This document shows, piece after piece, positions 2,649 to 59,509 of a DNA stretch of 64,000 bases. The first letter of the stretch is position 1. Each line of letters opens with the position of its first letter. Position numbers and translations under genes: made by a program. Below the pieces are notes generated by a model. That model did not search any database. It was not told the DNA's origin and saw only the letters and a program-made list of their open reading frames with translations. Source of the DNA: a bacterium (GTDB lineage Bacteria; Hydrothermota; Tepidihabitantia; B3-TA06); the NCBI GenBank assembly GCA_012517375.1, contig JAAYVC010000095.1:7061-71060 (forward strand). Reading direction: 5' to 3'.

Positions 2649-2870
2649 GTATTTGTTCTGTAGCACTATTTGGAAAATCGTAGCACTGTTTCGTTTTAAC
2701 ATTAAAGTGAAATTTCTTGTGCTTAATGATATCAAGATTATCCGCGGAACACGAATTCTTGCAAGACCTGATGTCCTGGTGGAACAACGGCCGTGTGATG
2801 AGAAGCGTCGGATTTCCCGACGGTCTGGATTTGACAATTTACGATATGATAATACTGTTTGAAAAATGAA

Positions 2871-3180
2871 AACTCGATAATACATCCTTCAGATTCATTG
2901 TTCTTCTCAAGAATGGAACACCTATAGGAGAAACTTCCTACCTCGATCATGATACCGAAAGAAATCAGATCGAAATAGGTTTGAGATACGCAAACCCGAT
3001 CTGTGGGGACAAGGATACGGTACTGAAACCCTTAAGGTCATGACGAATTATGCCTTTGAACATTCGGGTGTGGAGCGCGCTCTTCTTAATCCATCTAAAT
3101 CCAATTCCCGGATTATCCATGTTAATGAAAAGTGCGGCTATAGAACAATTGGTGAAAAAAAAATTATTAATGGAACTTAA
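2871..3180 (+). pseudogene. Decayed GNAT N-acetyltransferase remnant: C-terminal half only, with frameshifts.
   Basis: Two frames together read ...IGETSYLDHDTERNQIEIGLRYANP / DLWGQGYGTETLKVMTNYAFEHSGVERALL...RIIHVNEKCGYRTIG. This is the classic RimJ/RimL-like GNAT core. It is interrupted by a 1-nt frameshift near 2996-2998, and an A9 tract at 3155-3163 gives alternative C-termini. There is no N-terminal half and no start codon. Confidence 0.55.
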
Positions 3181-3555
3181 AAAATGCAATTGGTTTCTGG
3201 ATGAAATCGAATCTGAAAGCATAATTCATTAAACCCTTTCCACTAATAATTCTTTATCTTCCTGAAAACATAAATCTAATACAGGAACACATAAGTTTTT
3301 TGAGGTCAATTTAGTTTGTTAATTACTGAGGTAGATTACAAGACTGGCTCTCCTTCCAATAACATTTCATAAATAAGATTCTGTTAATAGACTTGAACGC
3401 AAAAACCCAACTAAAAGTAAGATGTTATCCAGAGGACACTATCGGCTATCTTTAGGCCAAGCTGATAAATAATCGATATCCTGCGTACAATTGAATCGCA
3501 ATGACTAATCTTGACAGCTTTCAAACCAAACCGTGTTTTAAGATTAAGTTACGCA

Positions 3556-3583
3556 CTTGACAATCCGAAAAGCTGCCTTATAA
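3556..3583 (+). promoter_or_regulatory. Near-consensus sigma70 promoter: TTGACA, 16-bp spacer, TATAAT.
   Basis: The sequence is acTTGACAatccgaaaagctgcctTATAATat. An AAGGAGG RBS sits 6 nt before the ATG at 3654. Confidence 0.6.
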
Positions 3584-3653
3584 TATATCCTTATTGGAAG
3601 CTATGGAGGAGGAAGGAAAAAGATGTCGACGTTTTAACGCAAGGAGGACACTC

Positions 3654-5864: not shown

Positions 5865-6053
5865 ATGGATGAATACCTTATACCTCAGGCTCTGAATTTT
5901 CTCGATGAAGCCTGCAGAGAGATGAATTGGAAGAAAGTAGCGTTTATCAACGCCGGTTCTCTTGTCCTCATACAACGTCTTGCAGCAAAAGATGGAATTC
6001 GAATTTTCAACAGTAAAGATGAGGCATTGAACTGGTTGAAGGATGGATTATAA
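5865..6053 (+). CDS. Truncated SpoIIAA-like paralogue (C-terminal half only, 62 aa).
   Basis: It retains the family C-terminal motif LIQRLAAKDGIRIFNSKDEALNWLKDG. It has its own RBS (AAAAGGGGTG). Confidence 0.45.
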   Translation: MDEYLIPQALNFLDEACREMNWKKVAFINAGSLVLIQRLAAKDGIRIFNSKDEALNWLKDGL

Positions 6054-6332
6054 ACTATTTTTTTGTTAAATTATTATAATGCTATGCTCTTCACTTTCCC
6101 CTGTATCTAGTTTAGAAGATTATTGTAGGGTAATTCTGTATAATTATTCGTTAACTAATACCGTTTTTAAAAATAAGGATTATTCGAGCAATGGGGTTGC
6201 ATAAGAGGAAAATTATGTATAATTACGTTACGGGTATCGTAAAACTATTTGTATTGGTTTCAAGTGAGGTAATAAATCAGGAGGATGTAAAATCCTCAGG
6301 AAACCTCGTAATAAGATACTGAAGGAGTAAAA

Positions 6333-6986
6333 ATGGCTGAAGGAAAAGTAAAAGGAATCAGAAACTTCGAAAAGAGAATCGAAGCCATCGAAGAAGTGCT
6401 TGCTACTGCCGCTGGCGGCGATTTCATGTCAGAGATCTCCATCGATATGGAGGAACCTGATGTACTAACATCAGTTGAAACGGGCATAAATCTTTTGATT
6501 TCTGATCTCGGAGAAGAGGTACGCCAGAGTCAGAATCGTGCCCAGGAACTCCAGGATAAACTGGACCTAATCGAGAAACAAAGACAGGCAATCGAGGAGC
6601 TGTCAACACCCATAATAAAGATTTGGGATCAAGTGTTAGTCTTGCCTCTGATAGGCGCACTTGATACAAGACGTTCGCAAAAACTTACGGAATCGCTATT
6701 AAACGAGATTGCTTCAACTCAAAGCAAGGTCACGATACTTGACATCACGGGCGTTCCAACGGTGGATTCGGCAGTGGCTAACCACATACTCAAAACCGTT
6801 GCATCTGTGAAACTTCTCGGCGCCCAATGCGTAATTACAGGTATAAGACCTGAAGTCGCACAAACCATCGTTCACCTTGGAGTTGATCTATCTGAAGTCG
6901 AAACCCTATCAAATCTTTCAGAAGGACTCAAGTGGGCCTTCAAACATTTGCATCTTAAGATAACAGAAGATAACAAGAAGGCTTGA
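6333..6986 (+). CDS. rsbR: RsbR-like stressosome sensor/co-antagonist: a short N-terminal coiled-coil domain plus a C-terminal STAS domain.
   Basis: The C-terminal part STPIIKIWDQVLVLPLIGALDTRRSQKLTESLL...VTILDITGVPTVDSAVANHILKTVASVKLLGAQCVITGIRPEVAQTIVHLGVDL closely follows the RsbR STAS consensus. Confidence 0.8.
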   Translation: MAEGKVKGIRNFEKRIEAIEEVLATAAGGDFMSEISIDMEEPDVLTSVETGINLLISDLGEEVRQSQNRAQELQDKLDLIEKQRQAIEELSTPIIKIWDQVLVLPLIGALDTRRSQKLTESLLNEIASTQSKVTILDITGVPTVDSAVANHILKTVASVKLLGAQCVITGIRPEVAQTIVHLGVDLSEVETLSNLSEGLKWAFKHLHLKITEDNKKA

Positions 6987-6987
6987 A

Positions 6988-7422
6988 ATGCTGCAAAATA
7001 ATCCCGTTCCCATTCTCAAACTCAGGGATTTCCTCCTCGTTTCTATACAGACAGACCTCCATGACCGTATGGCAGAACAACTCCAATATGATATCCTCAG
7101 GCGGATTTCGGAAACGCAGGCGAAGGGCGTCTTGATAGATATCTCCGCATTAGAGATGGTCGATTCTTTCATTGGACGAACCCTTGCGGATACTGCACGA
7201 ATGGCAAACACGCTGGATGCAGAAATAGTAATAGTAGGAATGAAGCCTGCAGTCGCAATAACCCTAGTCGAACTCGGTCTTTCTCTTGGAGACGTTCAAA
7301 CCGCCCTTTCTTTGGAAGACGGATTCCACATCCTAGAAGAATCACTCCTTGATTCCAGTTCTAAAGACGAAGAGGAAGCTTCAGAAGAAACAGAGGTCGA
7401 AGAGAATGATGATTCCAATTAA
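6988..7422 (+). CDS. rsbS: RsbS-like stressosome scaffold (single STAS domain) with an acidic C-terminal tail.
   Basis: The sequence is PILKLRDFLLVSIQTDLHDRMAEQLQYDILRRISETQAKGVLIDISALEMVDSFIGRTLADTARMANTLDAEIVIVGMKPAVAITLVELGL. It starts 1 nt after the rsbR stop. Confidence 0.8.
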   Translation: MLQNNPVPILKLRDFLLVSIQTDLHDRMAEQLQYDILRRISETQAKGVLIDISALEMVDSFIGRTLADTARMANTLDAEIVIVGMKPAVAITLVELGLSLGDVQTALSLEDGFHILEESLLDSSSKDEEEASEETEVEENDDSN

Positions 7423-10474: not shown

Positions 10475-10515
10475 AAAGGAAGAAGCCGGTTGCCCGCTTC
10501 TTCCTTTTTATTATA
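10475..10515 (+). terminator. Rho-independent terminator.
   Basis: The sequence is AAAAGGAAGAAGCcggttgcccGCTTCTTCCTTTTTATTAT. Confidence 0.7.
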
Positions 10516-30034: not shown

Positions 30035-30312
30035 AGTCCCTTTAGACCTGAACTTAACTAACAAAAAATGAGCTCGTCAAGGCGCTGTAAATGCATGCTC
30101 GTCTTACTGGCTGTAAGATATTCCTTGCTTAAACTTATGATGAGTATGTTTTTACAACCTCTCGAATCCGCTATAAAGTTATCCACAATCCACAATTCAA
30201 GGAATAAGGCAGGCATAAGTGCAGTGATTCATTAATCCTGACTCGGTTTGTGGCACGCTTTCCGCTCGCCGTAGCACGCTTGAGGTCAGGTTTTATGGAC
30301 AAATACTCCCCA

Positions 30313-30356
30313 AAAGCTGGTCAAAAGATGGTCAGAAGATGGTCAAATGATGGTCA
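30313..30356 (+). repeat. Four tandem copies of the 11-bp direct repeat RAWGMTGGTCA.
   Basis: The copies are AAAGCTGGTCA AAAGATGGTCA GAAGATGGTCA AATGATGGTCA. The same unit recurs at 53412-53444 and 53542-53607. Confidence 0.9.
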
Positions 30357-30748
30357 ATTTCGAGGGTGTTGGGTGCTCAGGTATTGTTTTAAGACCCGAT
30401 CCACTGAGTGAAAGCCGACCCTATTTCTTTGTAGAGATTAAGCAGGTCGGTTTACCTTGTGCTCTTGAGCTTTTCCTTAGTCTTGGGTTCGGACAGGCCT
30501 TGTGGGAACTCAGGAGGATAATAAATAGCAATAGCCATATCTGCGCTTAATTGCTCTATTCTTTTCTTAGCATCGGCTTCGGCATCTTGCTTGGAGTAGG
30601 AACCCTCAAGAACAACGGCAAGACCTTGATAGGAAACAAGGACATCCTGTCTTCCCTTTTTCCCTATTAGTTCGGCTCTTGAGATAATGCCTGTTTGGTG
30701 AAGTAACTCTGACAGGTAAACGTTTAGAATACTCTCATAAACAAACTT

Positions 30749-41899: not shown

Positions 41900-42927
41900 A
41901 TCTCCTTATCCGCAAACACTCTTGAAAGAAGAAGCGAGGCATTCTCGACATCCTTCATGTCCATCACCTCGACGGGCGTATGCATGTAGCGGACTGGTAT
42001 TGAAATAAGCGCCGCAGGCAAACCTTCGGCTATAAGGGTAATGACGTCCGATTCTGTGCCTGTAGAGCGTCCGAGAGGTTCCAGACCATAGGGCACGGAT
42101 AGCGTCTCAGCCTTATTTTTTATTGCCTCAAGATGCGGCTTTGACAAGACAGGACCAACGCCCAGCGTCGGGCCTGCACCCAAGGGAAATGAATAATCGC
42201 TCGATCCGTGAGAAATTCCGTATGTAACATCGGCGACAACGGCAAAAGAAGGATGAGCGGAGGACATGCTTCTTGCAGCGGATGAAGCCCCTAACATCGA
42301 GACCTCCTCCTGTGCGGATGCGACGAATAGAATCTTGCCGGGAAGCTTGCGCGCGTTGAGTTCCTTGGTAAGAAGCAAAGAAAGAAATACACCCGCCTTG
42401 TTATCCAGGCCGGCTGAGGTCACGAGAGAACCTTGAAGCGCCTTCGGTTTGGAATTCCAGACACACGGGTCTCCGGTTCCGACAATCCCTCTTAGCTCCT
42501 CAGCCTTCATACCGACGTCTATGTAAAGCTTGTCTGCAGGAATTGTCTGTCTGCGCTCTTCTTCGGTGACGAAGTGCGGCGGGCTCATACCTACAACGCC
42601 CCTTAGAGCTTTTTTCCCAAGCACGGTTAGCTCCTGTGAAACCACTATCCTAGGATCGATGCCGGGCATCTTGACGTATATGTAGCCTTCATCATCTACA
42701 TGTTCGACGATCAAGGACACCTGGTCAAGATGCGCGAAAAAAAGCGCCGTTCTCTCACCCTGGCCTATCTCCCAGCTCAGGCCTGAAGTACCAAGGTCAA
42801 AAGAACGGACGCTAATCGAATCAAGATACTCTTCAAGAAATCTCTTGGCCATTCCTTCGTGACCGGATGGAGATGGGATCTCAAGAAAACTGAAAAACAA
42901 ATCCCGGTTCATCTGGTTTTGAACCAC
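41887..42927 (-). CDS. M42 family metallo-aminopeptidase (TET / FrvX-like).
   Basis: It has FFAHLDQVSLIV, LDNKAGVF, AQEEVSMLGA and YMHTPVE. Confidence 0.8.
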   Translation of the reverse strand: MVQNQMNRDLFFSFLEIPSPSGHEGMAKRFLEEYLDSISVRSFDLGTSGLSWEIGQGERTALFFAHLDQVSLIVEHVDDEGYIYVKMPGIDPRIVVSQELTVLGKKALRGVVGMSPPHFVTEEERRQTIPADKLYIDVGMKAEELRGIVGTGDPCVWNSKPKALQGSLVTSAGLDNKAGVFLSLLLTKELNARKLPGKILFVASAQEEVSMLGASSAARSMSSAHPSFAVVADVTYGISHGSSDYSFPLGAGPTLGVGPVLSKPHLEAIKNKAETLSVPYGLEPLGRSTGTESDVITLIAEGLPAALISIPVRYMHTPVEVMDMKDVENASLLLSRVFADKEIWSL

Positions 42928-43748
42928 TCTATCAGTCTTGACAGTTCCGATTCGTCAGAGAAGAGAAGTTCTAGACGACCGCCCTTTCCGGAACGTAGGA
43001 GTCTTACCTTTACACCAAGCTTTTCTCCAAGGAATTCTTCAGTGGACGCCCTTATTCCGTCATGCTGCTTGCGCCGCTCTGGCATCGTTACCCTGTTTGA
43101 CGACTGCGCTATCTTCTCGACAGACCTCACGGTAAGTCCTTCGCTCACTATTCTGTCGCATACCTTTTCGATAAGCGATACGGACGTGATGGAAAGCATC
43201 GCCCTTGCATGTCCCTCCGATATCTTGCCCTCTTCAATGAACAATCTGGCTTTTCGCGGAAGCGACAGCAACCTCATGGTGTTCGCAACAGTGGAGCGGT
43301 CCTTTGCGACAATCCTTGCTATCTCCTCCTGGGTCATGGCGAACTCCTCGCTTAACTGCTTGTATGCAAGCGCAGACTCAATAGGATTAAGGTTCTCCCT
43401 CTGAAGGTTCTCAACCAAAGCAAGCGCCAGCATCTGCTTCTCGGTAACTTCCTTGATGACGACCGGAACGTCAGTAAGACCTGCGAGCTGGGACGCCTTA
43501 AGCCTGCGCGAGCCAGCTACAAGCTGATAGCCTGAGCCGTGTTTTCGAACGACTATCGGCTGCAGCACCCCGTGCTCCCTTATTGAAGCTGCAAGTTCGG
43601 CGACCTCCTGGCCCGTCACCTTTCTCGGCTGGTACGGGTTATCGGCAATGAGCTTTACAGGAAGCGTGAGCGGCGGTTCCTTTGAGTCCTTCTGGACGGT
43701 TGCAGGGATCAGCGCTTCGATTCCCTTTCCTAGCGCTTTTCTAGCCAC
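42909..43748 (-). CDS. parB: Chromosome partitioning protein ParB.
   Basis: It has GLTDVPVVIKEVTEKQMLALALVENLQRENLNPIE (ParB box) and a helix-turn-helix. Confidence 0.9.
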   Translation of the reverse strand: MARKALGKGIEALIPATVQKDSKEPPLTLPVKLIADNPYQPRKVTGQEVAELAASIREHGVLQPIVVRKHGSGYQLVAGSRRLKASQLAGLTDVPVVIKEVTEKQMLALALVENLQRENLNPIESALAYKQLSEEFAMTQEEIARIVAKDRSTVANTMRLLSLPRKARLFIEEGKISEGHARAMLSITSVSLIEKVCDRIVSEGLTVRSVEKIAQSSNRVTMPERRKQHDGIRASTEEFLGEKLGVKVRLLRSGKGGRLELLFSDESELSRLIEWFKTR

Positions 43749-44496
43749 GCGATATCACCTCGCTCGCAAGCTCGAGATAAGCCTGGGCGCCTCTTGAGTT
43801 GATGTCGTAGTGAAGGATGGTCTGGCCGAAGCTCGGAGCCTCGGCAAGGCGAACGTTACGCGGAATCATAGTTACGAAAACCTTTCCCGAGAAATACTTT
43901 CTTACCTCCTCTGCGACCTGGTCTGCAAGATTCGTGCGGGGGTCGTACATAGTCAGAAGCACACCGAAAATCTCGAGACCGGGATTTAGGGACTGCCTGA
44001 CGCGGTTGAGGGTATCAGTAAGCTTGCTGATTCCCTCAAGAGAATAGTACTCGCACTGAACCGGAATAAGCACGCCCTCGGCAGCAACAAGCGCATTGAG
44101 GGTAAGGATGCCGAGCGAAGGCGGAGCATCCATAATGACGTAATCGTAGGAATCAAGCCCTTCTATCGCTCGTTTAAGTCTTGCTTCCCTTGCCTCTGAG
44201 TCGATCAGCTCTATCTCAAGGCCTGCAAGATCGAGCGACGCCGGTATAATGTCAAGGTACTTTACAGAAGTACCCTGTACGGCTTCGCGGGTACGCTCCG
44301 GGTCCATGAATATCTCGTATGTAGAAAGCTTCGGCTCGCGGTTGTCTATCCCCAGACCGGATGTGGCGTTTGCCTGGGCATCCACATCGATGAGAAGAAC
44401 CCGTTTTTCGGCAACCGCTAGCGCGGCCGAAAGGTTGATGGCGGTGGTGGTCTTGCCGACCCCGCCCTTTTGGTTGACTACGGCAATCCTTCTCAT
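43741..44496 (-). CDS. parA: Chromosome partitioning ATPase ParA/Soj.
   Basis: It has the deviant Walker A motif MRRIAVVNQKGGVGKTTTAINLSAALA. Confidence 0.95.
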   Translation of the reverse strand: MRRIAVVNQKGGVGKTTTAINLSAALAVAEKRVLLIDVDAQANATSGLGIDNREPKLSTYEIFMDPERTREAVQGTSVKYLDIIPASLDLAGLEIELIDSEAREARLKRAIEGLDSYDYVIMDAPPSLGILTLNALVAAEGVLIPVQCEYYSLEGISKLTDTLNRVRQSLNPGLEIFGVLLTMYDPRTNLADQVAEEVRKYFSGKVFVTMIPRNVRLAEAPSFGQTILHYDINSRGAQAYLELASEVISRG

Positions 44497-46772: not shown

Positions 46773-48266
46773 TCAGTCCTTCTTCGAATCCTTGCCGGCA
46801 AGGGCTGCATCGAAGTATTTCGCAAGATTCTCATCACGGACGCGCTTCATTTCAGATCTTGGAAGCGTGGTCAGGAGCTCCCAGCCCAGGTCGAGCGTAT
46901 ACTCTATTGTTCTGTTCTCATATTCCGACTGGGAGATGTAGCGGCGTTCGAAATCCTCCGCAAACTTCATGTAAAGCTTATCTATATCCGTGAGAGCGGC
47001 CTCTCCGAGAATGACCGCAAGTTCCTGAGCCTCTTTCCCTCTCGCGTAAGCCGCATATAGCTGATTGAAGGAATCGGCATGATCCTCACGAGTCTTGCCT
47101 TTGCCGATGCCCTTATCCTTCAAACGAGAGAGAGAAGGAAGAACGTCTACGGGAGGCGCGACGTTCTTGTTGTTGAGGACTCGGGAGAGGATTATCTGAC
47201 CTTCGGTGATGTAGCCTGTGAGGTCGGGAATAGGATGGGTCTTATCGTCCTCAGGCATGGTAAGTATGGGTATGAGGGTTATGGAACCCTTAGAGCCTTT
47301 GATTCTTCCGGACCGCTCATAGATAGTCGCAAGATCAGTGTAGAGATAGCCGGGATAACCGCGCCTGCCGGGAATCTCCTTTCTTGCTGCCGAGATCTCG
47401 CGAAGCGCCTCGCAGTAGTTGGTCAAATCGGTCAAGATGACGAGAACGTGGTAATTCTTTGTAAAAGCCAGGTACTCGGCTGCGGTGAATGCCACGCGCG
47501 GTGTTGCGATTCGCTCGATTGCCGGGTCATCGGCAAGATTAAGAAAAAGGACGGTGCGTTCAAGAGCGCCAGTGCGTCGGAAATCCTCGATGAAAAACTC
47601 TGCCTCCTCGAAGGTAATGCCCATTGCTCCGAAGACGACTGCGAACTCCTCGCCCGTTCCAAGAACCCTGGACTGCCGGGCAATCTGCGCGGCCATGCGG
47701 TTGTGAGGAAGACCGGAACCTGAGAAGATGGGCAGCTTCTGACCGCGAACTAGCGTGTTGAGGCCGTCGATGGCGGAGATGCCTGTCTGGATGAACTCGT
47801 TAGGGTAGCTTCTTGAGAAAGGATTGATAGGAAGACCGTTTATGTCCCTGAACTCCTCGGGTATGATTGCGGGAGAGTGGTCGCGCGGCCTGCCAAGACC
47901 GTCGAATACCCTGCCTAAAAGCTCTTCGGAGACACCCAGGGTGATGCCCTTACCGAGAAAGCGCACGCGTGTTTGGCCTATTTCGATTCCGGACGAACCC
48001 TCGAATATCTGGATAAGAGCCTTATCCTGGTTGACCTCAAGCACTCTGCCCCTGCGGCGTTCGCCTGACGGAAGGTAAATCTCAACGAGTTCTTCGTATT
48101 TGACTCCCTCCACTCCCTCGACAAGAAGCAAAGGCCCTGCAACTGAGGAGATAGTCTGGTAATCGGTTATGCCTTTAAAGGCTCTAGTTACATCTGATGC
48201 ATCACTGGTGTCGCTGGTGCTACGGGTGTTACGGGTATTACTGGTATTACGGGTGTTACGGGTCAT
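46773..48266 (-). CDS. atpB: V-type ATP synthase subunit B, with an unusual ~27-aa low-complexity N-terminal extension.
   Basis: The core from [36 protein letters not shown]... onward aligns with the NtpB/AtpB consensus. The N-terminal [26 protein letters not shown] is encoded by 9-bp tandem repeats. Its ATG overlaps the atpA stop. Confidence 0.9.
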
Positions 48267-53121: not shown

Positions 53122-53199
53122 AAGTTACTATCCGACAAGGGGTTATGGAGTCTGCCCCAACGGATAACCCAATGAGCACAAAGACTCCGCATGTAGCGA

Positions 53200-53232: not shown

Positions 53233-53411
53233 CTTAAGTTATTCCTTTCCTTAAGTTATAGATTGACTTAAGCTGAGGGATTCAATTCCTACGACACGTA
53301 ATAAGTGACGGCGATTTACTAAGTTATTTTTTATTTTTATTTCGATGGAACCAAGCGCATCTTTCTAAAAGGGTCCCCGCAAAGCTGCGGAGCAGGTTTG
53401 TGGGATAGAAA

Positions 53412-53444
53412 AAGATGGTCAAAAGATGATCAAAAGATGGACAA
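53412..53444 (+). repeat. Three tandem 11-bp repeats of the RAAGNTGGTCA family.
   Basis: The copies are AAAGATGGTCA AAAGATGATCA AAAGATGGACA. Confidence 0.85.
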
Positions 53445-53492
53445 TTCGGGAAATTTGCCTTCCAAAATGACCAAATAATAGGGACAAATTTA

Positions 53493-53520: not shown

Positions 53521-53541
53521 TCGGAGTATTTTTCGTGAAAA

Positions 53542-53607
53542 AAAGTAGGTCAGAAGTTGGTCAGAAGTGGGACAAAAGATGGTCAAAAGCTGGTCAAAAG
53601 ATGGACA
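53542..53607 (+). repeat. Six tandem 11-bp repeats of the RAAGNTGGTCA family.
   Basis: The copies are AAAGTAGGTCA GAAGTTGGTCA GAAGTGGGACA AAAGATGGTCA AAAGCTGGTCA AAAGATGGACA. Confidence 0.9.
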
Positions 53608-53806
53608 AATCAACCGCTAAGATGAAGTCAGATTTAATAGTTTGTTGTCAGGTTCAATGGAACGCCTCAGAGCAACATTCCAATGTCATTGCGAGGCTTC
53701 ATCCAGAAGACGAAGCAATTGCCCAAATCATCTTGATCTTTACCCTCTCCTCAGGAAGATGATTCAACGTAGGGGCCGACTTTCAAGTCGACCCGCACCG
53801 CTCGGG

Positions 53807-55263: not shown

Positions 55264-55322
55264 GAGATTGCTTCGATTGCTCGAAGCAATCTCGCAAAGA
55301 CAAGGGGCTTAAGCCCCTTGTC
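55264..55322. promoter_or_regulatory. Two adjacent perfect palindromes: a 13-bp-arm inverted repeat (GAGATTGCTTCGA-ttgc-TCGAAGCAATCTC) and a 24-bp perfect palindrome (GACAAGGGGCTTAAGCCCCTTGTC).
   Basis: They were seen directly. They lie between the transporter 3' end and the rmuC promoter, so they could be a terminator or a dimeric-regulator site. Confidence 0.6.
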
Positions 55323-55521
55323 TGAAAAAAGGCTGAAGGCGATTGTTCCGCAAGCGTCGCCCTTCGGACTCACGGCCGCTAGAAGCATCCTCAGAATGAC
55401 GTGGGAGTGTTGTTACGGGTCCCCCTCCCTGGTGGACAGCGTGCCCCTTGGGGTGCCTGCACCTCATAGGGTAGGGGGTTGGGGGCGGGGACATCCGGGG
55501 GGTCCCCAAACGAGAACGCAG

Positions 55522-56781
55522 TTATCGATTGGGGTGCTGGAACAGCAGAAGCCAGACCGCGAACGTCACGATTGCGACAGCGATAACGGATGGAACCAGC
55601 CACTTGTAGACCGAACCCCAGCTTGCCCGAAAGTACTCGCGGGATAAGGCAAGGCAGAGATGCGAGGGCGAAAGCATGACGCCGAAGAAGCCAAACGCAT
55701 AGGCGAGCATGACGAGTCCGGGGTCATGACCGATGAAGGGCGCGAGCAGGGGGAACGTGGTTGCAACGTAAGCCTGGTTAAGCCCCACGAGGAGCCCGAC
55801 GACGAAGGGCAGGAACATTATCATGGCGACGATGAGGGAGGAGGGGGCGCCGGAAAGCATAGGACCCAGACCGGCGAGGGCGGACGAGCGGTCGAGCATG
55901 TACTTGAAGAACATGACCGAAGCCATTAGCGATATAACGCGCCAGTCGAGCGCGGAAAGGATGAGCTTTCCTGAGCCTTTGAGAGGCACCTTGTAGAATA
56001 TCCACGAAGAGACCAGAACGACGAGCATGACCGCGGAAACGGGAATCTTGATTATCGAACCCAGCGCCTGCGTGATAGCGATGAGGACGACGATGATCAT
56101 GAGAGGAAACGCGCCGTAGAGCACGTCTTTTGTGGAGGAGCTGCCCTTGCCCGGCAGGCGTTCGGGACGAACATCTCTGCGCTTGACGAATGCGAAGAGG
56201 ATAACGGCGCCTGCGGCTATAGCGAGCAGGGTGACGAACGACTGGTGGACGATAACGGAGCCGACTGTCAAGTTCTTGATGATGGCGAAGCCCACGATAA
56301 GGCCTGGGTACAGCGGCCAGAAGTACTCCCACACGTGCCTGAACCAGTAGTTGATGTAGACCGCAAGCCCTGGCTTTATTCCGTAGGGCTTTATCTGCTC
56401 CTCGGTCATTGGGGCCGTGAAGTATGCGCCGCCCGGCATTGGCAGGAGACCGACGAACATCGGAATCGTGACCACGCTCACGCGAGAGCCGCGCAGCAGG
56501 TAGTCGGCGCCTCCGGCGAAGCGGGAGAGGATTCCGCGCTCCTTCATCATCTTGCCGAGGATCTCGATGAAGCATACGATGAGGATGGTGTCAATGGTGT
56601 AGAAATCGATGACGCTATCGAGAAAGGTCCTCGCGATATCGAACGCAGGCATGGTGAAGAGTATGCCGGTTACTATTGCGCCGAGCAGGATGGGAACGAA
56701 CGTCGGCAGCCTGAAAATCATGACCAGGATGATGACGCCGAAGATGATTCCGAGTTTTGCGAGGAGAGGTAAGTGCTCCAT
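55522..56781 (-). CDS. Polytopic membrane transporter (DUF401-like / ion-transporter superfamily).
   Basis: It is 419 aa with about 12 predicted transmembrane helices. It has no ATP-binding motifs. The family assignment is from memory. GC is about 60%. Confidence 0.45.
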   Translation of the reverse strand: MEHLPLLAKLGIIFGVIILVMIFRLPTFVPILLGAIVTGILFTMPAFDIARTFLDSVIDFYTIDTILIVCFIEILGKMMKERGILSRFAGGADYLLRGSRVSVVTIPMFVGLLPMPGGAYFTAPMTEEQIKPYGIKPGLAVYINYWFRHVWEYFWPLYPGLIVGFAIIKNLTVGSVIVHQSFVTLLAIAAGAVILFAFVKRRDVRPERLPGKGSSSTKDVLYGAFPLMIIVVLIAITQALGSIIKIPVSAVMLVVLVSSWIFYKVPLKGSGKLILSALDWRVISLMASVMFFKYMLDRSSALAGLGPMLSGAPSSLIVAMIMFLPFVVGLLVGLNQAYVATTFPLLAPFIGHDPGLVMLAYAFGFFGVMLSPSHLCLALSREYFRASWGSVYKWLVPSVIAVAIVTFAVWLLLFQHPNR

Positions 56782-57097
56782 AACGCTCGATTATACGGGC
56801 TTTGGGAACGAGGTCAACTCGTGCGGCCCTGTTCTCGACAAAAAGGAATAAATTTCTACACAGGTTGTATTGCGAGTATACTATAAACTTGCGAGACAGC
56901 AAGGAGGGCGCGCCTGGAAGGCGCTTGGCGGAAGTTTTACTTCCGCAATTTTACTGCCGGTCTTTAAGGAGGCGCCTGGGCGGCGCCGTGTTGAACCCAA
57001 TGCTGCGATGGGCGTCATGGGGTCCCTTGAAAATCACAGAGTGATTTTCAAGGCTGGTGTTTCCTGTCTCCGTAAAACAAACCTAAAGGAGATAACA

Positions 57098-58558
57098 ATG
57101 TCAACCCTGAAAAAACTAATGGTTATCGTCGCAGTGATGCTTGTGAGCGCAAGCCTTTTCGCCGAAAGGATTGAAGGCTATGCCAGCCCTTGGGCCGTCA
57201 AAGGCATCTCACAAGTTTATGTTAACTACGGATATCTGGGTCACGACGACTACGGGGTTTATGGCAAAGATAGCTCAAGCAATAACCATGGATATCTTGG
57301 TTCAGACGACTACGGTGCTTATGGAAAACATTCTTCCTCGGGCAACTATGGATACCTGGGTTCATATTATTACGGGGCCTACGGATACGACAGCTCGTCA
57401 GGAAACTACGGGTACCTGGCACACAACCTTTACGGCGCATATGGAAGGAGCAGCGGCAATTACGGTTATCTAGGTTCATCTTCCAACGGCGCATACGGCA
57501 GCAGCTCTTCGGGCAACTACGGCATTCTTGGATCTTCCAGCTATGGAGCCTACGGAAGATACACCAACGGCAACTACGCATATCTCGGCGGTTCCACGAA
57601 AGCTTTGGGCTCATACGCGGCGACCGCGGCCTCTTACGCCGCCCACTTCTCTCATATCAGCGGCTCATATATGTATCTTGGAGCCAATTCGTACGGGGCG
57701 TTCTTCCATGGCCCGGGGTCGTCCTCGGCAACTATTTGCAACTCCTCGGATATAGGAATCGGAGCGTACGGTCCTGAAGATGCCGCATACTTTACGGGCG
57801 ACGTTACCGTTTCGGGCGACCTTTACGTAACAGGCGACAAGGACAACGTGATCAAGCTCGACGACGGCACGTGGGTCACCATGTCGGCAACCGAGGCGCC
57901 CTATCCGGAGTACACGATATCGGGACGGACAAAGCTCTCCAACGGCACAGCGAGGATAGAGTTCGATGAGCCGTACCCAAAGGTGATTTCAAAGGAAATC
58001 CCGATAAAGGTAATCGTGACGCCCGAAGGTTCTTACAGCGGCATATACGTGAAGGACGTGTCGGTAAATGGTTTTACGGCTGTTTCCGATGTTGGCGACC
58101 GCAACGCGACCTTCAGCTGGATGGCTATTGCGCGAGTAAAGGGGAAGGAACAAAAGACCGACTACGGGGCGGTCACAGCGAAGATGCAGAAGCTTGAGGC
58201 CTCGCAGAGGCTGCTCGGGCTCCCGAATCGCAATACACCGATGGAACACGAGGAAGCTTTGGAGCCTCGGAAAATCCAGTCGCTGCCGGAGCTTCGTCTT
58301 TCAGCGCCTGAGCTGAGTGCGGGTAATTTGACCATCGAATACGAGCTACCCACTGCTTCAAGCGCAACCCTTTCCGTTTTTGACGAATCAGGCAGGCTGG
58401 TGCGGACGCTTGCGAGCAGTCAAATGAGTAAAGGCAATCACATCCTCTTCTGGGATCGCACGGACGACGCGGGCCGTGCGGTATCCGCAGGCGTCTACTA
58501 CATGAGACTCGACGCCGGCGCCGACACAAAGACGGCGAAGGTGACTATCGTCAAGTAA
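57098..58558 (+). CDS. Secreted Gly/Tyr-rich tandem-repeat protein with a T9SS-type C-terminal sorting domain.
   Basis: I trimmed to MSTLKKLMVIVAVMLVSASLFA (signal peptide). It has about 7 repeats of about 17 aa (NYGYLGSDDYGAYGKHSSSG...). The C-terminus is GVYYMRLDAGADTKTAKVTIVK. Confidence 0.7.
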   Translation: MSTLKKLMVIVAVMLVSASLFAERIEGYASPWAVKGISQVYVNYGYLGHDDYGVYGKDSSSNNHGYLGSDDYGAYGKHSSSGNYGYLGSYYYGAYGYDSSSGNYGYLAHNLYGAYGRSSGNYGYLGSSSNGAYGSSSSGNYGILGSSSYGAYGRYTNGNYAYLGGSTKALGSYAATAASYAAHFSHISGSYMYLGANSYGAFFHGPGSSSATICNSSDIGIGAYGPEDAAYFTGDVTVSGDLYVTGDKDNVIKLDDGTWVTMSATEAPYPEYTISGRTKLSNGTARIEFDEPYPKVISKEIPIKVIVTPEGSYSGIYVKDVSVNGFTAVSDVGDRNATFSWMAIARVKGKEQKTDYGAVTAKMQKLEASQRLLGLPNRNTPMEHEEALEPRKIQSLPELRLSAPELSAGNLTIEYELPTASSATLSVFDESGRLVRTLASSQMSKGNHILFWDRTDDAGRAVSAGVYYMRLDAGADTKTAKVTIVK

Positions 58559-58582
58559 ATCATTTAAGGATAAAATGACGGG

Positions 58583-58600
58583 CGGCGAAAGCCGCCCTTA
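58583..58600 (+). terminator. Rho-independent terminator-like hairpin.
   Basis: The sequence is GGGCGGCgaaaGCCGCCC followed by ttaccttt. Confidence 0.55.
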
Positions 58601-58741
58601 CCTTTACCCAAAGCTGGTTCGCATCTTAGCGGGGACGCCGAATCGCAGGATTGTATTGCCACTTTCATCTGGACGATCCTTTTTGTCTCGAGAATAAAAA
58701 CGGGGCCTTCAAGCGAGAACGACTTTATCGCTTGGGGTTAA

Positions 58742-59509
58742 TTAAAGCGGCAGAAAAATCTGGCGCCTGCCTGTCTGCGGGTGCCGGCCCTCGACCGGCC
58801 GCACTCCCCAGTAACGTTCTATGATCTCTGGCTTAAGGAGCGCGTCGGGAGAATCGTCCTCGGCTAGCCGGCCGCGGGCGAAGATGAGCATCCGGTTCGA
58901 GCAGAGCGCGGCCTGGTTGAGGTCGTGCGCAACGAGAACGATGCAAATCCCCTCCTCGTTCAAGCTTCTGAGAAGCGCGAGCACATCGTGCTGGTGTGCA
59001 AGATCTAGATGATTGAGAGGTTCATCGAGAAGGATTACGGATGGCTCCTGCACGAGCGCTCGACAGATAACGGCGAGTTGGCGCTCTCCAGATGAGATAT
59101 TGTTGATGGACTTTTCCGCGAGATGGAGAATACCAAGCCTCTCGAGCGCCGAGCGGGCTAGGGCGTAATCGGATGAGCGATAGCGCTCGAGCGCGCCAAG
59201 GTAAGGATGGCGTCCATGAAGCACGGTCTCGATAACGGTAAAATCAAGGCTGAAACGGCTCTCCTGCGCAACGTATGCAAGGCTTCTGGCAAGCTCGCGT
59301 CGGCTGATGGAATCGAGCTCGGTACTGTTAAATAGGATACCGCCGGACGATGGATGAAGAAGACGCGCGAGAAGCTTCACGAACGTGCTCTTTCCTGCCC
59401 CGTTCGGTCCAACAACGGATACGAATTCGCTCTTGCCGATGCTCGCCGAGAGGTTCTCGAAAAGAGGCCGTCTCGGATAGGAGAAGGAAAGCGCGCGAAC
59501 ATCAAACAC
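58742..59509 (-). CDS. ABC transporter ATP-binding protein (iron-siderophore/cobalamin type, BtuD/FecE-like).
   Basis: It has Walker A GPNGAGKST, the signature LSGGERQ and Walker B ILLDEP. Confidence 0.9.
   Translation of the reverse strand: MFDVRALSFSYPRRPLFENLSASIGKSEFVSVVGPNGAGKSTFVKLLARLLHPSSGGILFNSTELDSISRRELARSLAYVAQESRFSLDFTVIETVLHGRHPYLGALERYRSSDYALARSALERLGILHLAEKSINNISSGERQLAVICRALVQEPSVILLDEPLNHLDLAHQHDVLALLRSLNEEGICIVLVAHDLNQAALCSNRMLIFARGRLAEDDSPDALLKPEIIERYWGVRPVEGRHPQTGRRQIFLPL

Follow-up and report, generated by a model that had tools for sequence, protein, structure and literature searches.

A small family of 31-base REP-like hairpins in one group of uncultured WOR-3 bacteria

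Two stem-loops in the 64-kb window (the whole stretch of DNA that was analyzed) are members of a small, previously undescribed family of 31-base REP-like hairpins in one group of uncultured WOR-3 bacteria. Copy A (55504..55534, + strand) overlaps the end of a DUF401 membrane-protein gene, and copy B (58707..58737, + strand) lies just past the stop codon of an ABC-transporter ATPase gene. What recurs across the family is an architecture and not the CGATAA...CGTTCTCG interior. We consider A and B to belong to a lineage-specific, low-copy REP-like family of a WOR-3 subclade, and its members to be probably 3'-end mRNA hairpins, a reading to which we assign a probability of about 0.5. The feature is of an ordinary kind in an unusual organism.

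Copies A and B

In the family orientation, with the GGGGT head first, copy A is read on the + strand as ggggggt CCCCAAACGAGAAC gca GTTATCGATTGGGG t. The DUF401 mRNA, transcribed from the - strand (55534->55504), reads CCCCAATCGATAACTGCGTTCTCGTTTGGGG, then ACCCCCC. The predicted RNA fold of this copy (-13.8 kcal/mol, z -2.75) has a 14-pair stem with two internal mismatches and a 3-nt loop. The sequence-only reading had proposed a stem of 8-9 bp and a 13-nt loop; with the longer stem and the shorter loop, the TAA in copy A falls in the upper stem. That the transporter gene ends within the stem-loop is borne out: copy A is 3'-terminal to the DUF401 gene (55522..56781, - strand), overlaps 13 nt of its coding sequence and contains its last three codons (P-N-R) and TAA. 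The protein has 419 aa here, and homologues from other lineages have 414 aa, ending five codons earlier (...WLFFF*). In arising at the DUF401 end, copy A probably substituted its own stop codon for the native one and so lengthened the gene by five codons. At the DUF401 end in the related contig L011 there is a decayed 5' arm (CAT CCT AAA CTA TAG), and 16 nt of the 3' arm are missing. A comparable arrangement is found 3 kb beyond the window, where the stop codon of a NUDIX gene lies inside a family member with a long interior (...NRGPQGH*).

Copy B is read on the + strand as cggggc CTTCAAGCGAGAAC gac TTTATCGCTTGGGG t and on the - strand (58737->58707) as CCCCAAGCGATAAAGTCGTTCTCGCTTGAAG. It is located between convergent genes, those of the ATPase and of a protein with a FlgD_ig domain. 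The ATPase gene (58742..59509, - strand) is the last of a Peripla_BP_2 / FecCD / ABC_tran operon, and in its mRNA copy B starts 4 nt past the TAA. The places previously given for A and B are confirmed, and the gap between stop codon and copy B, previously put at 3 nt, is corrected. On the - strand only the lower 7-10 pairs of copy B form; its outer stem is weakened there by C.A mismatches, which are G.U pairs on the + strand.

A and B are identical at 23 of 28 positions (also when counted by eye), one fewer than the approximately 24 of 28 reported earlier. This identity is not significant alone, because comparing every 28-mer of the 64-kb window with every other should yield about one pair of 23/28 by chance. 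An all-against-all comparison of the window's 28-mers gave 17 direct pairs with at least 23/28, most of them in obvious repeat arrays, and at least one of them (4426/54747) is apparently a chance pair; palindromy also halves the number of independent positions. It could therefore be argued that A and B are unrelated GC-ended hairpins that resemble each other by chance, the more so as no other copy of the A/B sequence was found in the public collections scanned. We regard this as very improbable. Both copies have an off-stem GGGG(T/C) head, a T past the stem, the 31-nt geometry and a G.A mismatch at stem position 11, and, as described below, their inner identity is the highest of any non-orthologous family pair and a model built without either of them recovers both. 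It is family membership, not pairwise identity, that makes A and B real.

A hairpin family conserved in structure and position

The family unit is GGGGT + [CCCC-N10 / 3-nt loop / N10-GGGG] + T, a 31-nt hairpin of 14 pairs. A few members have longer interiors, of up to ~57 nt, with the ends kept. Only GGGGT, CCCC/GGGG and a loose RCAAA...TTTGY are common to the members, and the head itself varies (GGGGC in B, GGGGA in the L057 member at 1785). The architecture was found in at least eight related WOR-3 contigs. A scan for hairpins of 14 bp with a 3-nt loop gave CCCC...GGGG members in the window and in L011, L014, L015, L016, L049 and L057, and the L053 member was recognized by eye. The elements are absent from L012, L013, L018 and L022. 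Every member also has W+CCCC or GGGG+W adjoining it, which played no part in the selection. GGGGWCCCC occurs 13 times in 67.7 kb from close relatives, where 0.76 occurrences are expected, and is missing from 101 kb of unrelated metagenome loci.

We built a covariance model (R2) from 11 elements of other genomes only, with no sequence from the window. With this model copy A is found at E=1e-4 (55495-55543) and copy B at E=8e-3 (58698-58746). Over the 128 kb of strand searched, A and B take the four top ranks together with members at 53375 and 57024; the best unrelated matches have E>=1. Model R1 also recovers members that were not used in building it (L015 6123, L016 3435, L008 4839 and L044 7204). 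Across 14 members, 89.8% of cells are paired, and only 37-48% are when the partner columns are slid. Ten of the 14 pairs have changed on both sides, a count that is partly circular as members were first picked as hairpins. Predicted RNA folds in the family range from about -9 to -22 kcal/mol, with z-scores down to -8. Wobble pairs do not clearly point to one strand as the transcribed one (10 G.U in the family orientation against 6 in the opposite one, with L053 going against the majority). Several members share a purine-purine mismatch at stem positions 10-11.

The sequence-only reading missed two members in the window. The first (53375..53405, + strand; gggt CCCCGCAAAGCTGC gga GCAGGTTTGTGGGA t) is the best match to R2 (E=9.8e-10), with a predicted RNA fold of -19.5 kcal/mol (z -4.4). 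The convergent genes ARPP-1 and RmuC flank it, with their stops ~250-400 nt away, and it directly adjoins an array of 11-nt repeats; its orthologues in L011, L014, L015 and L016 adjoin the same repeats. The second (57024..57054, + strand; ggggt CCCTTGAAAATCAC aga GTGATTTTCAAGGC; R2 E=2.5e-4) has a predicted RNA fold of -19.7 kcal/mol (z -3.6). It is placed in the divergent (promoter) region common to the FlgD_ig gene and DUF401, ends 43 nt upstream of the likely ATG of the FlgD_ig gene (57098) and has a weak orthologue at L011 5677-5701. A probable decayed member (58598..58643, - strand) adjoins the terminator hairpin of the FlgD_ig gene. It gives only weak model matches (7.9 bits, E=5.8; with R2 10.4 bits, E=1.2), and, partly by eye, it is the positional counterpart of intact members at L011 3909-3939 and L057 1785-1815. 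The third partial copy claimed earlier, at 53140-53170 (GGGGTTAT...ATAACCC), proved to be a different hairpin, which was scored neither by the pattern searches nor by either covariance model.

Four copies and one remnant are thus present within 5.4 kb (53.3-58.8 kb), and another is found 3 kb outside the window. The covariance models found no member in the other 58 kb of the window, despite ~10 intergenic gaps of >100 nt, and looser searches gave no further A/B-type copy in the window and 8 kb beyond it. In an exact-pattern scan, CCAANCGATAANNNCGTTCTCGNTTG had 0 matches in 185,579 species genomes. AANCGATAANNNCGTTCTCGNTT had 18 matches in JGI metagenomes, which we judge to be chance because none has CCCC/GGGG flanks, and the family signature GGGGTCCCCRCAA-N15-TTGYGGGG had 0 matches in IMG/VR. 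On these results the A/B sequence is no widely distributed repeat, and the expectation that this specific sequence would recur widely does not hold. Rfam gave 0 matches at gathering thresholds in the whole window; at E<=1, the 52.9-59.0 kb region has only an unrelated sub-threshold PrrB_RsmZ match (19 bits vs 44, 58477-58605). We found nothing relevant in the literature on GGGGTCCCC/GGGGACCCC or on WOR-3 repeats.

The position of the hairpin past the ATPase gene is conserved between species. It lies 4-5 nt past the stop codon of the ATPase gene in the window and in L011, L057 and L053, and in L049 hairpins are placed at 0 and ~44 nt. The ATPase genes of these lineages agree at only 0.48-0.60 of third codon positions, and apart from the hairpin the spacer is unalignable. 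In L011 and L053 the ATPase genes are 94% identical in nucleotide sequence and the homology ends exactly at the stop codon and hairpin, which implies that the hairpin moves together with the variable sequence behind it.

Of all non-orthologous pairs in the family, A and B are the most closely related. Their inner identity of 18/23, compared with a family mean of 10.6/23, is the highest among such pairs and equals that of the best orthologous pairs, and they are separated by only 3.2 kb. Because of this kinship, A was probably copied from B or converted by it, or the reverse, by local duplication or gene conversion. Logan assemblies run uninterrupted through A and B, so the two are not identical multi-copy repeats. 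The assembly graph branches at 55436/55437 of the window, which may reflect either a multi-copy repeat or strain polymorphism.

Terminators and DNA-level sites as alternatives

A stable stem-loop that closes an operon right past the stop codon is also what an intrinsic terminator looks like, and a conserved terminator had been among the initial suggestions. A and B could serve the ABC operon and DUF401 as terminators or attenuators that lack a U-tract, possibly Rho-dependent with C-rich, G-poor tracts downstream, and their similarity would then reflect shared constraints. Each of the two copies marks the extreme end of a transcription unit. Downstream of A, RmuC is served by a good sigma-70-type promoter of its own (55131-55104), so that transcription of DUF401 must end between the two genes. 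A C-rich, G-poor tract follows A (ACCCCCCGGATGTCCCCGCCCCCAACCCCCTACCC) and the orthologues of B in L011, L053 and L057, but copy B of the window has no such tract behind it.

Several observations make a terminator function unlikely. Neither copy has a U-tract behind it, whichever way it is read (ACCCCCCGG comes after A and CCCCG after B), and neither is called by a terminator scan. Canonical stem-plus-U-tract terminators do occur elsewhere in the window: one at 10476-10506 is followed by TTTATTAT, GGGCGGC-GAAA-GCCGCCC follows the FlgD_ig gene and GGGTCGACTT-GAAA-GTCGGCCC follows RmuC. A stronger terminator-like palindrome (GACAAGGGGCTTAAGCCCCTTGTC TTTG) is located at 55301-55324, 200 nt downstream of A. 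Unlike intrinsic terminators, the elements have a long stem (14 bp) that is AU-rich inside and has conserved mismatches. Two members are also away from 3' ends, one before a start codon (57024) and one ~250-400 nt off the stops (53375).

The elements may instead be DNA hairpin or cruciform sites for a structure-specific protein, such as an HUH/Y1 transposase (the case in REP-RAYT systems), a site-specific recombinase, or a nucleoid or replication protein. The position at gene ends would then mark places where insertions or recombination junctions are tolerated, with no RNA function. The conserved parts of the element are the stem foot and the 5' GGGGT head, the layout recognized by hairpin-binding HUH enzymes. 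The ends are kept while interior length varies, the purine-purine mismatch recurs at stem positions 10-11 and all five copies in or just beyond the window have one orientation. The best-scoring member always adjoins the array of 11-nt direct repeats, in five genomes, and the end of L011/L053 homology exactly at the stop codon and hairpin fits this possibility as well. In addition, two directly oriented copies flank the FlgD_ig gene, a gene that the P0003 lineage lacks. Against these points, no transposase, integrase or recombinase gene is present in the ~45 kb annotated, and orthologous positions are kept between species, so that the copies have not been recently mobile. The right-hand limit of the FlgD_ig segment is ~200 nt from the nearest hairpin and not at a hairpin, and the hairpin at the P0003 'empty site' (TGGAGTGCAACAAC CAG GTTGTTGCACTCCA) has the family geometry but none of the family sequence signature; on both counts we rejected insertion of a FlgD_ig cassette. 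We consider a purely DNA-level role possible but doubtful.

A further and rather unlikely proposal is that the GGGGT hairpins are cis-acting sites of an undescribed, WOR-3-specific nucleoprotein system and not selfish REP-like leftovers. A hairpin- or cruciform-binding protein would recognize the conserved stem foot and work with the conserved 11-nt direct-repeat arrays (GGTCAAAAGAT). In at least five genomes these arrays abut the best member, and the region is ~10 kb from parAB. Such a system might serve replication, segregation or the control of recombination, and the gene-end copies would be additional sites of it in one orientation. Alternatively, the hairpin might be the structured 5' module of a small RNA that carries the repeats.

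A replication origin was also considered, given the 11-nt repeats, parAB and a minimum of the cumulative GC skew near 52-56 kb. We rejected it: DnaA boxes (TTATCCACA) number 18 against 11.5 expected, which is not a clear enrichment, none of them is in the hairpins, and the skew tracks gene orientation (1-20 kb +, 20-51 kb -). The best match to parS (TGTTTCACGTGAAACA) has 3 mismatches, which is at chance level, and the geometry and consensus of dif do not fit. Integron attC sites resemble the elements in being imperfect palindromes at or overlapping the preceding stop codon, with structure kept more than sequence. They were rejected as well, as the elements have 31 nt instead of 57-141, lack RYYYAAC/GTTRRRY core sites (the apex CGATAAC/GTTCTCG is unfit) and show no extrahelical-base pattern, integrase or cassette array; the flanks are syntenic core genes (the ABC operon and DUF401).

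REP-like hairpins, probably of mRNA 3' ends

The initial suggestion of a REP-like element holds up best, given a recurrent small extragenic imperfect palindrome at gene ends with conserved ends, a GGGGT flank, kept pairing and recurrence in relatives. REPs are G+C-rich stem-loops that are biased to positions between convergent genes and affect mRNA stability, and their head is GTAG (PMC3184786). The elements described here are likewise short (about 30 nt), extragenic imperfect palindromes that favor 3' gene ends and convergent pairs. Their 31 nt, 14 pairs and 3-nt loop are within the ~20-40 nt of a REP palindrome; B and the 53375 member are between convergent genes, A is 3'-terminal and the 57024 member is in a divergent region. 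Sometimes they form inverted pairs (L011 3611/3909, L057 1633/1785), and they have a short conserved head by the stem, recurrent internal mismatches and the ability to fold in the mRNA of the upstream gene.

The elements also differ from the REP and BIME sequences of Enterobacteria, Pseudomonas and Stenotrophomonas. Their conserved head is GGGGT and not GTAG/GGAG. Only the stem ends are conserved and interiors differ within a genome, whereas REP copies are similar in sequence; no within-genome consensus emerges at the low mean inner identity of the family, to which the A-B pair is the exception. Few, clustered copies are visible instead of hundreds of dispersed ones, and their positions are orthologous from species to species. 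No RAYT or IS200-type transposase (PF01797) is among the annotated genes of the window at 24.9-63 kb and the 8 kb beyond it, where annotation is incomplete. As in some MITEs and other small repeats, copy A and the NUDIX-associated copy supply the last codons and the stop of the host gene, but terminal inverted repeats around a unique core, target-site duplications and signs of recent mobility are all lacking.

By analogy with enterobacterial REP sequences, a REP-like element transcribed with its upstream gene would form a stable hairpin at, or a few nt past, the stop codon and act as a barrier to 3'-to-5' exonucleases, and would thus define and stabilize the 3' end of the upstream message. In E. 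coli, a REP within ~15 nt of a stop codon lowers translation. Being so near the stop codon, the WOR-3 hairpin may also slow translation termination. We infer this RNA-level role from the analogy.

If correct, this would be the first REP-like hairpin family described in the candidate division WOR-3, an almost wholly uncultured phylum. The elements would give host genes stop codons and short C-terminal extensions, and so would affect gene calling, as for DUF401 and the NUDIX tail. They would mark the junctions of mosaic, recombining segments beside a variable secreted-protein gene, and would help to explain the fragmentation of assemblies in particular spacers of these organisms. The finding opens no long-standing question and is of descriptive value, unless the connection with the 11-nt repeat arrays turns out to be a functional one. 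It would provide a small, testable set of 3'-end elements for the definition of mRNA ends in the WOR-3 lineage.

Copies A and B at two gene ends

Copy A (55534 to 55504, minus strand) reads CCCCAATCGATAACTGCGTTCTCGTTTGGGG and copy B (58737 to 58707, minus strand) reads CCCCAAGCGATAAAGTCGTTCTCGCTTGAAG. The minus-strand reading bears out the claim of an earlier sequence-only reading that the TAA of the DUF401 membrane protein gene (55522..56781) sits within copy A. As had also been noted, copy B lies just past the stop (TAA) of the ABC ATPase gene, but at 4 nt rather than 3 nt; this gene, 58742..59509, closes a Peripla_BP_2/FecCD/ABC_tran operon. The two copies are indeed alike, although at 23 of 28 aligned positions and not about 24. 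The architecture first described, a stem of 8-9 bp with the stop codon in a 13-nt loop, is replaced, in A, by a stem of 14 pairs that has two internal mismatches and a 3-nt loop (-13.8 kcal/mol, z -2.75), the stop codon being in the upper stem. On the minus strand, copy B pairs only at the lower 7 positions and at two outer ones; on the plus strand, through G.U pairs, it has 10 contiguous pairs (-12.0 kcal/mol, z -4.1). Across the family, wobble-pair asymmetry does not tell which strand matters. The supposed third partial copy at 53140-53170 is a distinct hairpin (GGGTTAT...ATAACCC), recovered by no search or model.

Copy A has remodelled its host gene. DUF401 homologues from other lineages have 414 aa and end in ...WLFFF*; the window protein runs on to ...LLLFQHPNR*, and the hairpin 5' arm encodes P-N-R and the stop. 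Just past the window, a NUDIX gene (...NRGPQGH*) also has its stop within a family member, one with a long interior.

An all-versus-all comparison of 28-mers in the window gave 17 direct pairs with at least 23 of 28 matches, most of them in evident repeat arrays or internal gene repeats. At least one (4426/54747) is chance-like, in agreement with about one pair expected, and the A-B sequence identity by itself is insufficient to exclude chance. No further copy of the A/B sequence was found in the window and 8 kb beyond it or in one genome per species of GTDB, and the 18 matches to a loosened A/B core in JGI metagenomes, about the chance expectation, all lack the CCCC/GGGG flanks. The claim of recurrence is not supported for the A/B sequence and holds for the architecture of a hairpin family in relatives, and with that family considered a chance likeness of A and B is very improbable.

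A hairpin family in related genomes

The window occupies bases 29673-93672 in an ENA metagenome contig of 117 kb (ERZ928041, k127_20843), and among reference genomes its closest are MAGs of candidate division WOR-3 / "Stahlbacteria". Orthologous loci (L numbers) were gathered via the DUF401 protein and the ATPase. Just past the ATPase stop, relatives have hairpins that agree in geometry and differ in their interiors: CCCCAAAATAATAC TCC GTATTCTTTTGGGG in L011 and CCCCGAAAGAATAC GAA GTATTCTTTCGGGG in L057 (both at 4 nt), TTTCATGACGCTAC CCG GTATCGTCATGGGG in L053 (5 nt), and CCCCAAGCCGTTGC TTC GCAACGTCTCGGGG in L049 (about 44 nt), which has a second, degenerate copy at 0 nt. ACCCC follows each of these hairpins.

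A blind scan for hairpins with a 14-bp stem and a 3-nt loop recovered further members at L011 3909 and 8989, L014 8155, L015 6475, L016 4022 and L057 1785, and two in the window that had been overlooked (53375-53405 and 57024-57054). In one orientation, all members share the consensus GGGGT + CCCC-N10 / N3 / N10-GGGG + T, in which the GGGGT head played no part in member selection. In 67.7 kb of close relatives GGGGWCCCC turns up 13 times (0.76 expected), and in 101 kb of unrelated metagenome loci not once. In a 14-member alignment 89.8% of cells are paired, falling to 37-48% when partners are slid by 1-3 columns, and 10 of 14 stem pairs vary on both sides; this count is partly circular, since members were first picked as hairpins. 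The independent test is a covariance model built from 11 members from other genomes only and run unfiltered over the whole window. Its best four matches, all on the plus strand, are the family members at 53366-53414 (E 1e-9), 55495-55543 (copy A, E 1e-4), 57015-57062 (E 2.5e-4) and 58698-58746 (copy B, E 8e-3), and unrelated matches begin at E about 1. A second model of the family (R1) recovers members outside its training set, including long-interior variants with the ends kept (L016 3435-3504, L044 7204-7277, L008 4839-4913).

Positional conservation within a mosaic region

Every window copy has a positional counterpart in L011. The member at 53375 corresponds to L011 8989, each adjoining 11-nt repeat arrays; B to 3611; a remnant at 58598-58643 to 3909; and, weakly, 57024 to 5677. 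Opposite A, L011 has a decayed 5' arm (CAT CCT AAA CTA TAG) and a 16-nt gap for the 3' arm, then ACCCCCCG as in the window. These lineages have a third-codon identity of 0.48-0.68, and their spacers otherwise resist alignment. Because paired 31-nt stems stay at fixed positions despite such divergence, the comparison argues for selection on hairpin structure.

The hairpins do not merely track the neighbouring gene. The ATPase genes of L011 and L053 share 94% nucleotide identity, their hairpins match at only 18 of 31 positions, and homology stops at the stop codon; the L011 hairpin is closer to that of L057, though ATPase identity with L057 is only 75%. The L011 ATPase gene (2839-3606) is only 76% identical to that of the window, and its DUF401 gene (6001-7260) is 86% identical in nucleotides and 93% in amino acids. 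These differences in closest kin imply a recombination breakpoint between the two genes, and the region is a recombination mosaic with the hairpin in the variable downstream segment. The inner identity of A and B (18/23) is the highest of all pairs, level with orthologous pairs (family mean 10.6), and at position 11 of the stem both carry a G.A mismatch. The likeness of the two sites, 3.2 kb apart, would most simply be explained by local duplication or gene conversion.

The 11-nt direct repeats, whose units (GGTCAAAAGAT and variants) measure about one helical turn, show conservation across at least five WOR-3 genomes and always adjoin the best-scoring family member. Arrays lie at 30289-30368, 53398-53455 and 53529-53630 (plus strand) and at L011 8880-8990, L014 8030-8150, L015 6500-6590 and L016 3970-4020. 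About half of the units come close to a relaxed DnaA box (TTGTCCAC), and parA (43741-44496) and parB (42909-43748) are 10 kb away; neither canonical parS nor DnaA-box enrichment was found. At 30 kb G+C goes up from about 0.41 to about 0.51, the step coinciding with an 800-nt spacer that has one array and a perfect TTATCCACA (30179); at 50 kb it falls to 0.46.

The spacer downstream of DUF401 is dense with further short repeats common to diverged WOR-3 genomes (55301-55324, 55330-55392, 55420-55441; L016 about 3170-3460 and about 3805, L047 about 2640, L044 5690-5920, L015 6280-6430), among them a perfect palindrome GACAAGGGGCTTAAGCCCCTTGTC, TCCCCCTCCCTGGTGGACAGC, and GTCATTCTGAGG/GTCATTGCGAG...CGAAGGGCGA...GCAATCTC. 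The unit ACCCGTAAC(AC) turns up repeatedly (48204-48266, minus strand, and 55405-55417; L011 7262-7345 and 3680-3760), one copy being downstream of hairpin A. As in-frame tandem repeats of 9 nt it encodes 16 residues of the V-ATPase B subunit N-terminus, and it stands about six times in tandem after the L011 DUF401 gene (CCCCCGTAACAC); CCCCTCAG-like tandem repeats follow the L011 hairpin B. Independent Logan contigs end at identical bases (about 55436/55437 in the window; ends of L041-L046 and L049-L052): about 85 nt past the DUF401 stop in five samples of the window lineage and 79 nt past it in the P0003 lineage, with contigs of the L049 lineage breaking off 205 nt past the ATPase stop. Such shared ends resemble branch points in the assembly graph, caused by a repeat or by polymorphism.

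The FlgD_ig ORF (T9SS-type C-terminal domain, 56870-58558, plus strand) holds four 60-nt tandem repeats (57223-57451) and probably starts at ATG 57098 (486 aa, RBS AAAGGAGA), not at TTG 56870 (562 aa). The gene is wholly absent from the P0003 lineage, in which 92 nt separate the ATPase gene from DUF401. This spacer carries a perfect 31-nt hairpin, TGGAGTGCAACAAC CAG GTTGTTGCACTCCA (L041 7944-7974, L044 4352-4382, L048 30-60), like the family in its 14-bp/3-nt-loop geometry but without the CCCC/GGGG/GGGGT signature. A -35-like TTGCAC that precedes the conserved DUF401 TATAAT by 16 nt overlaps the 3' arm of this hairpin.

A proposed REP-like family

Copies A and B stand at gene ends, and a conserved terminator had been among the first suggestions. 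No U-tract follows either copy, a terminator scan calls neither, and the genome has canonical terminators: at 10476-10506, followed by a T-run; after the FlgD_ig gene (GGGCGGC-GAAA-GCCGCCC); and, as a hairpin, after RmuC. The intrinsic reading is rejected, and atypical or Rho-linked terminators are improbable. The hairpins could instead be DNA-level sites of a structure-specific protein or recombinase, which we consider unlikely though less so. The annotated neighbouring genes include no transposase or recombinase, parS is absent and DnaA boxes are not enriched. attC sites were ruled out by length and core sequences, and no Rfam family matches the hairpins. Logan assemblies from several samples are unbroken across A and B, which are therefore not identical multi-copy repeats.

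REPs are G+C-rich stem-loops with a conserved head, a bias to convergent genes, an effect on mRNA stability and an association with RAYT (PMC3184786). The earlier suggestion of a REP-like element survives in that we file the hairpins as a lineage-specific, low-copy REP-like family; they are not strict REPs, since the head is GGGGT instead of GTAG, interiors are unconserved, copies are few and clustered, and no RAYT gene is seen among annotated neighbours.

By analogy with REPs, an element transcribed with its upstream gene would fold, right where the coding region ends on its 3' side, into a stable hairpin that would protect and define the message end. Since a ribosome at the stop codon has the 5' arm within its footprint, the hairpin may also modulate termination. 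In E. coli, a REP near a stop codon affects translation.

The original observation is real and its description needed redoing, its interpretation being right in part. The existence of the hairpins, their family membership and their conserved structure and position are established here. The family is a modest one; what could raise it above this is the link of its best member to conserved 11-nt repeat arrays.
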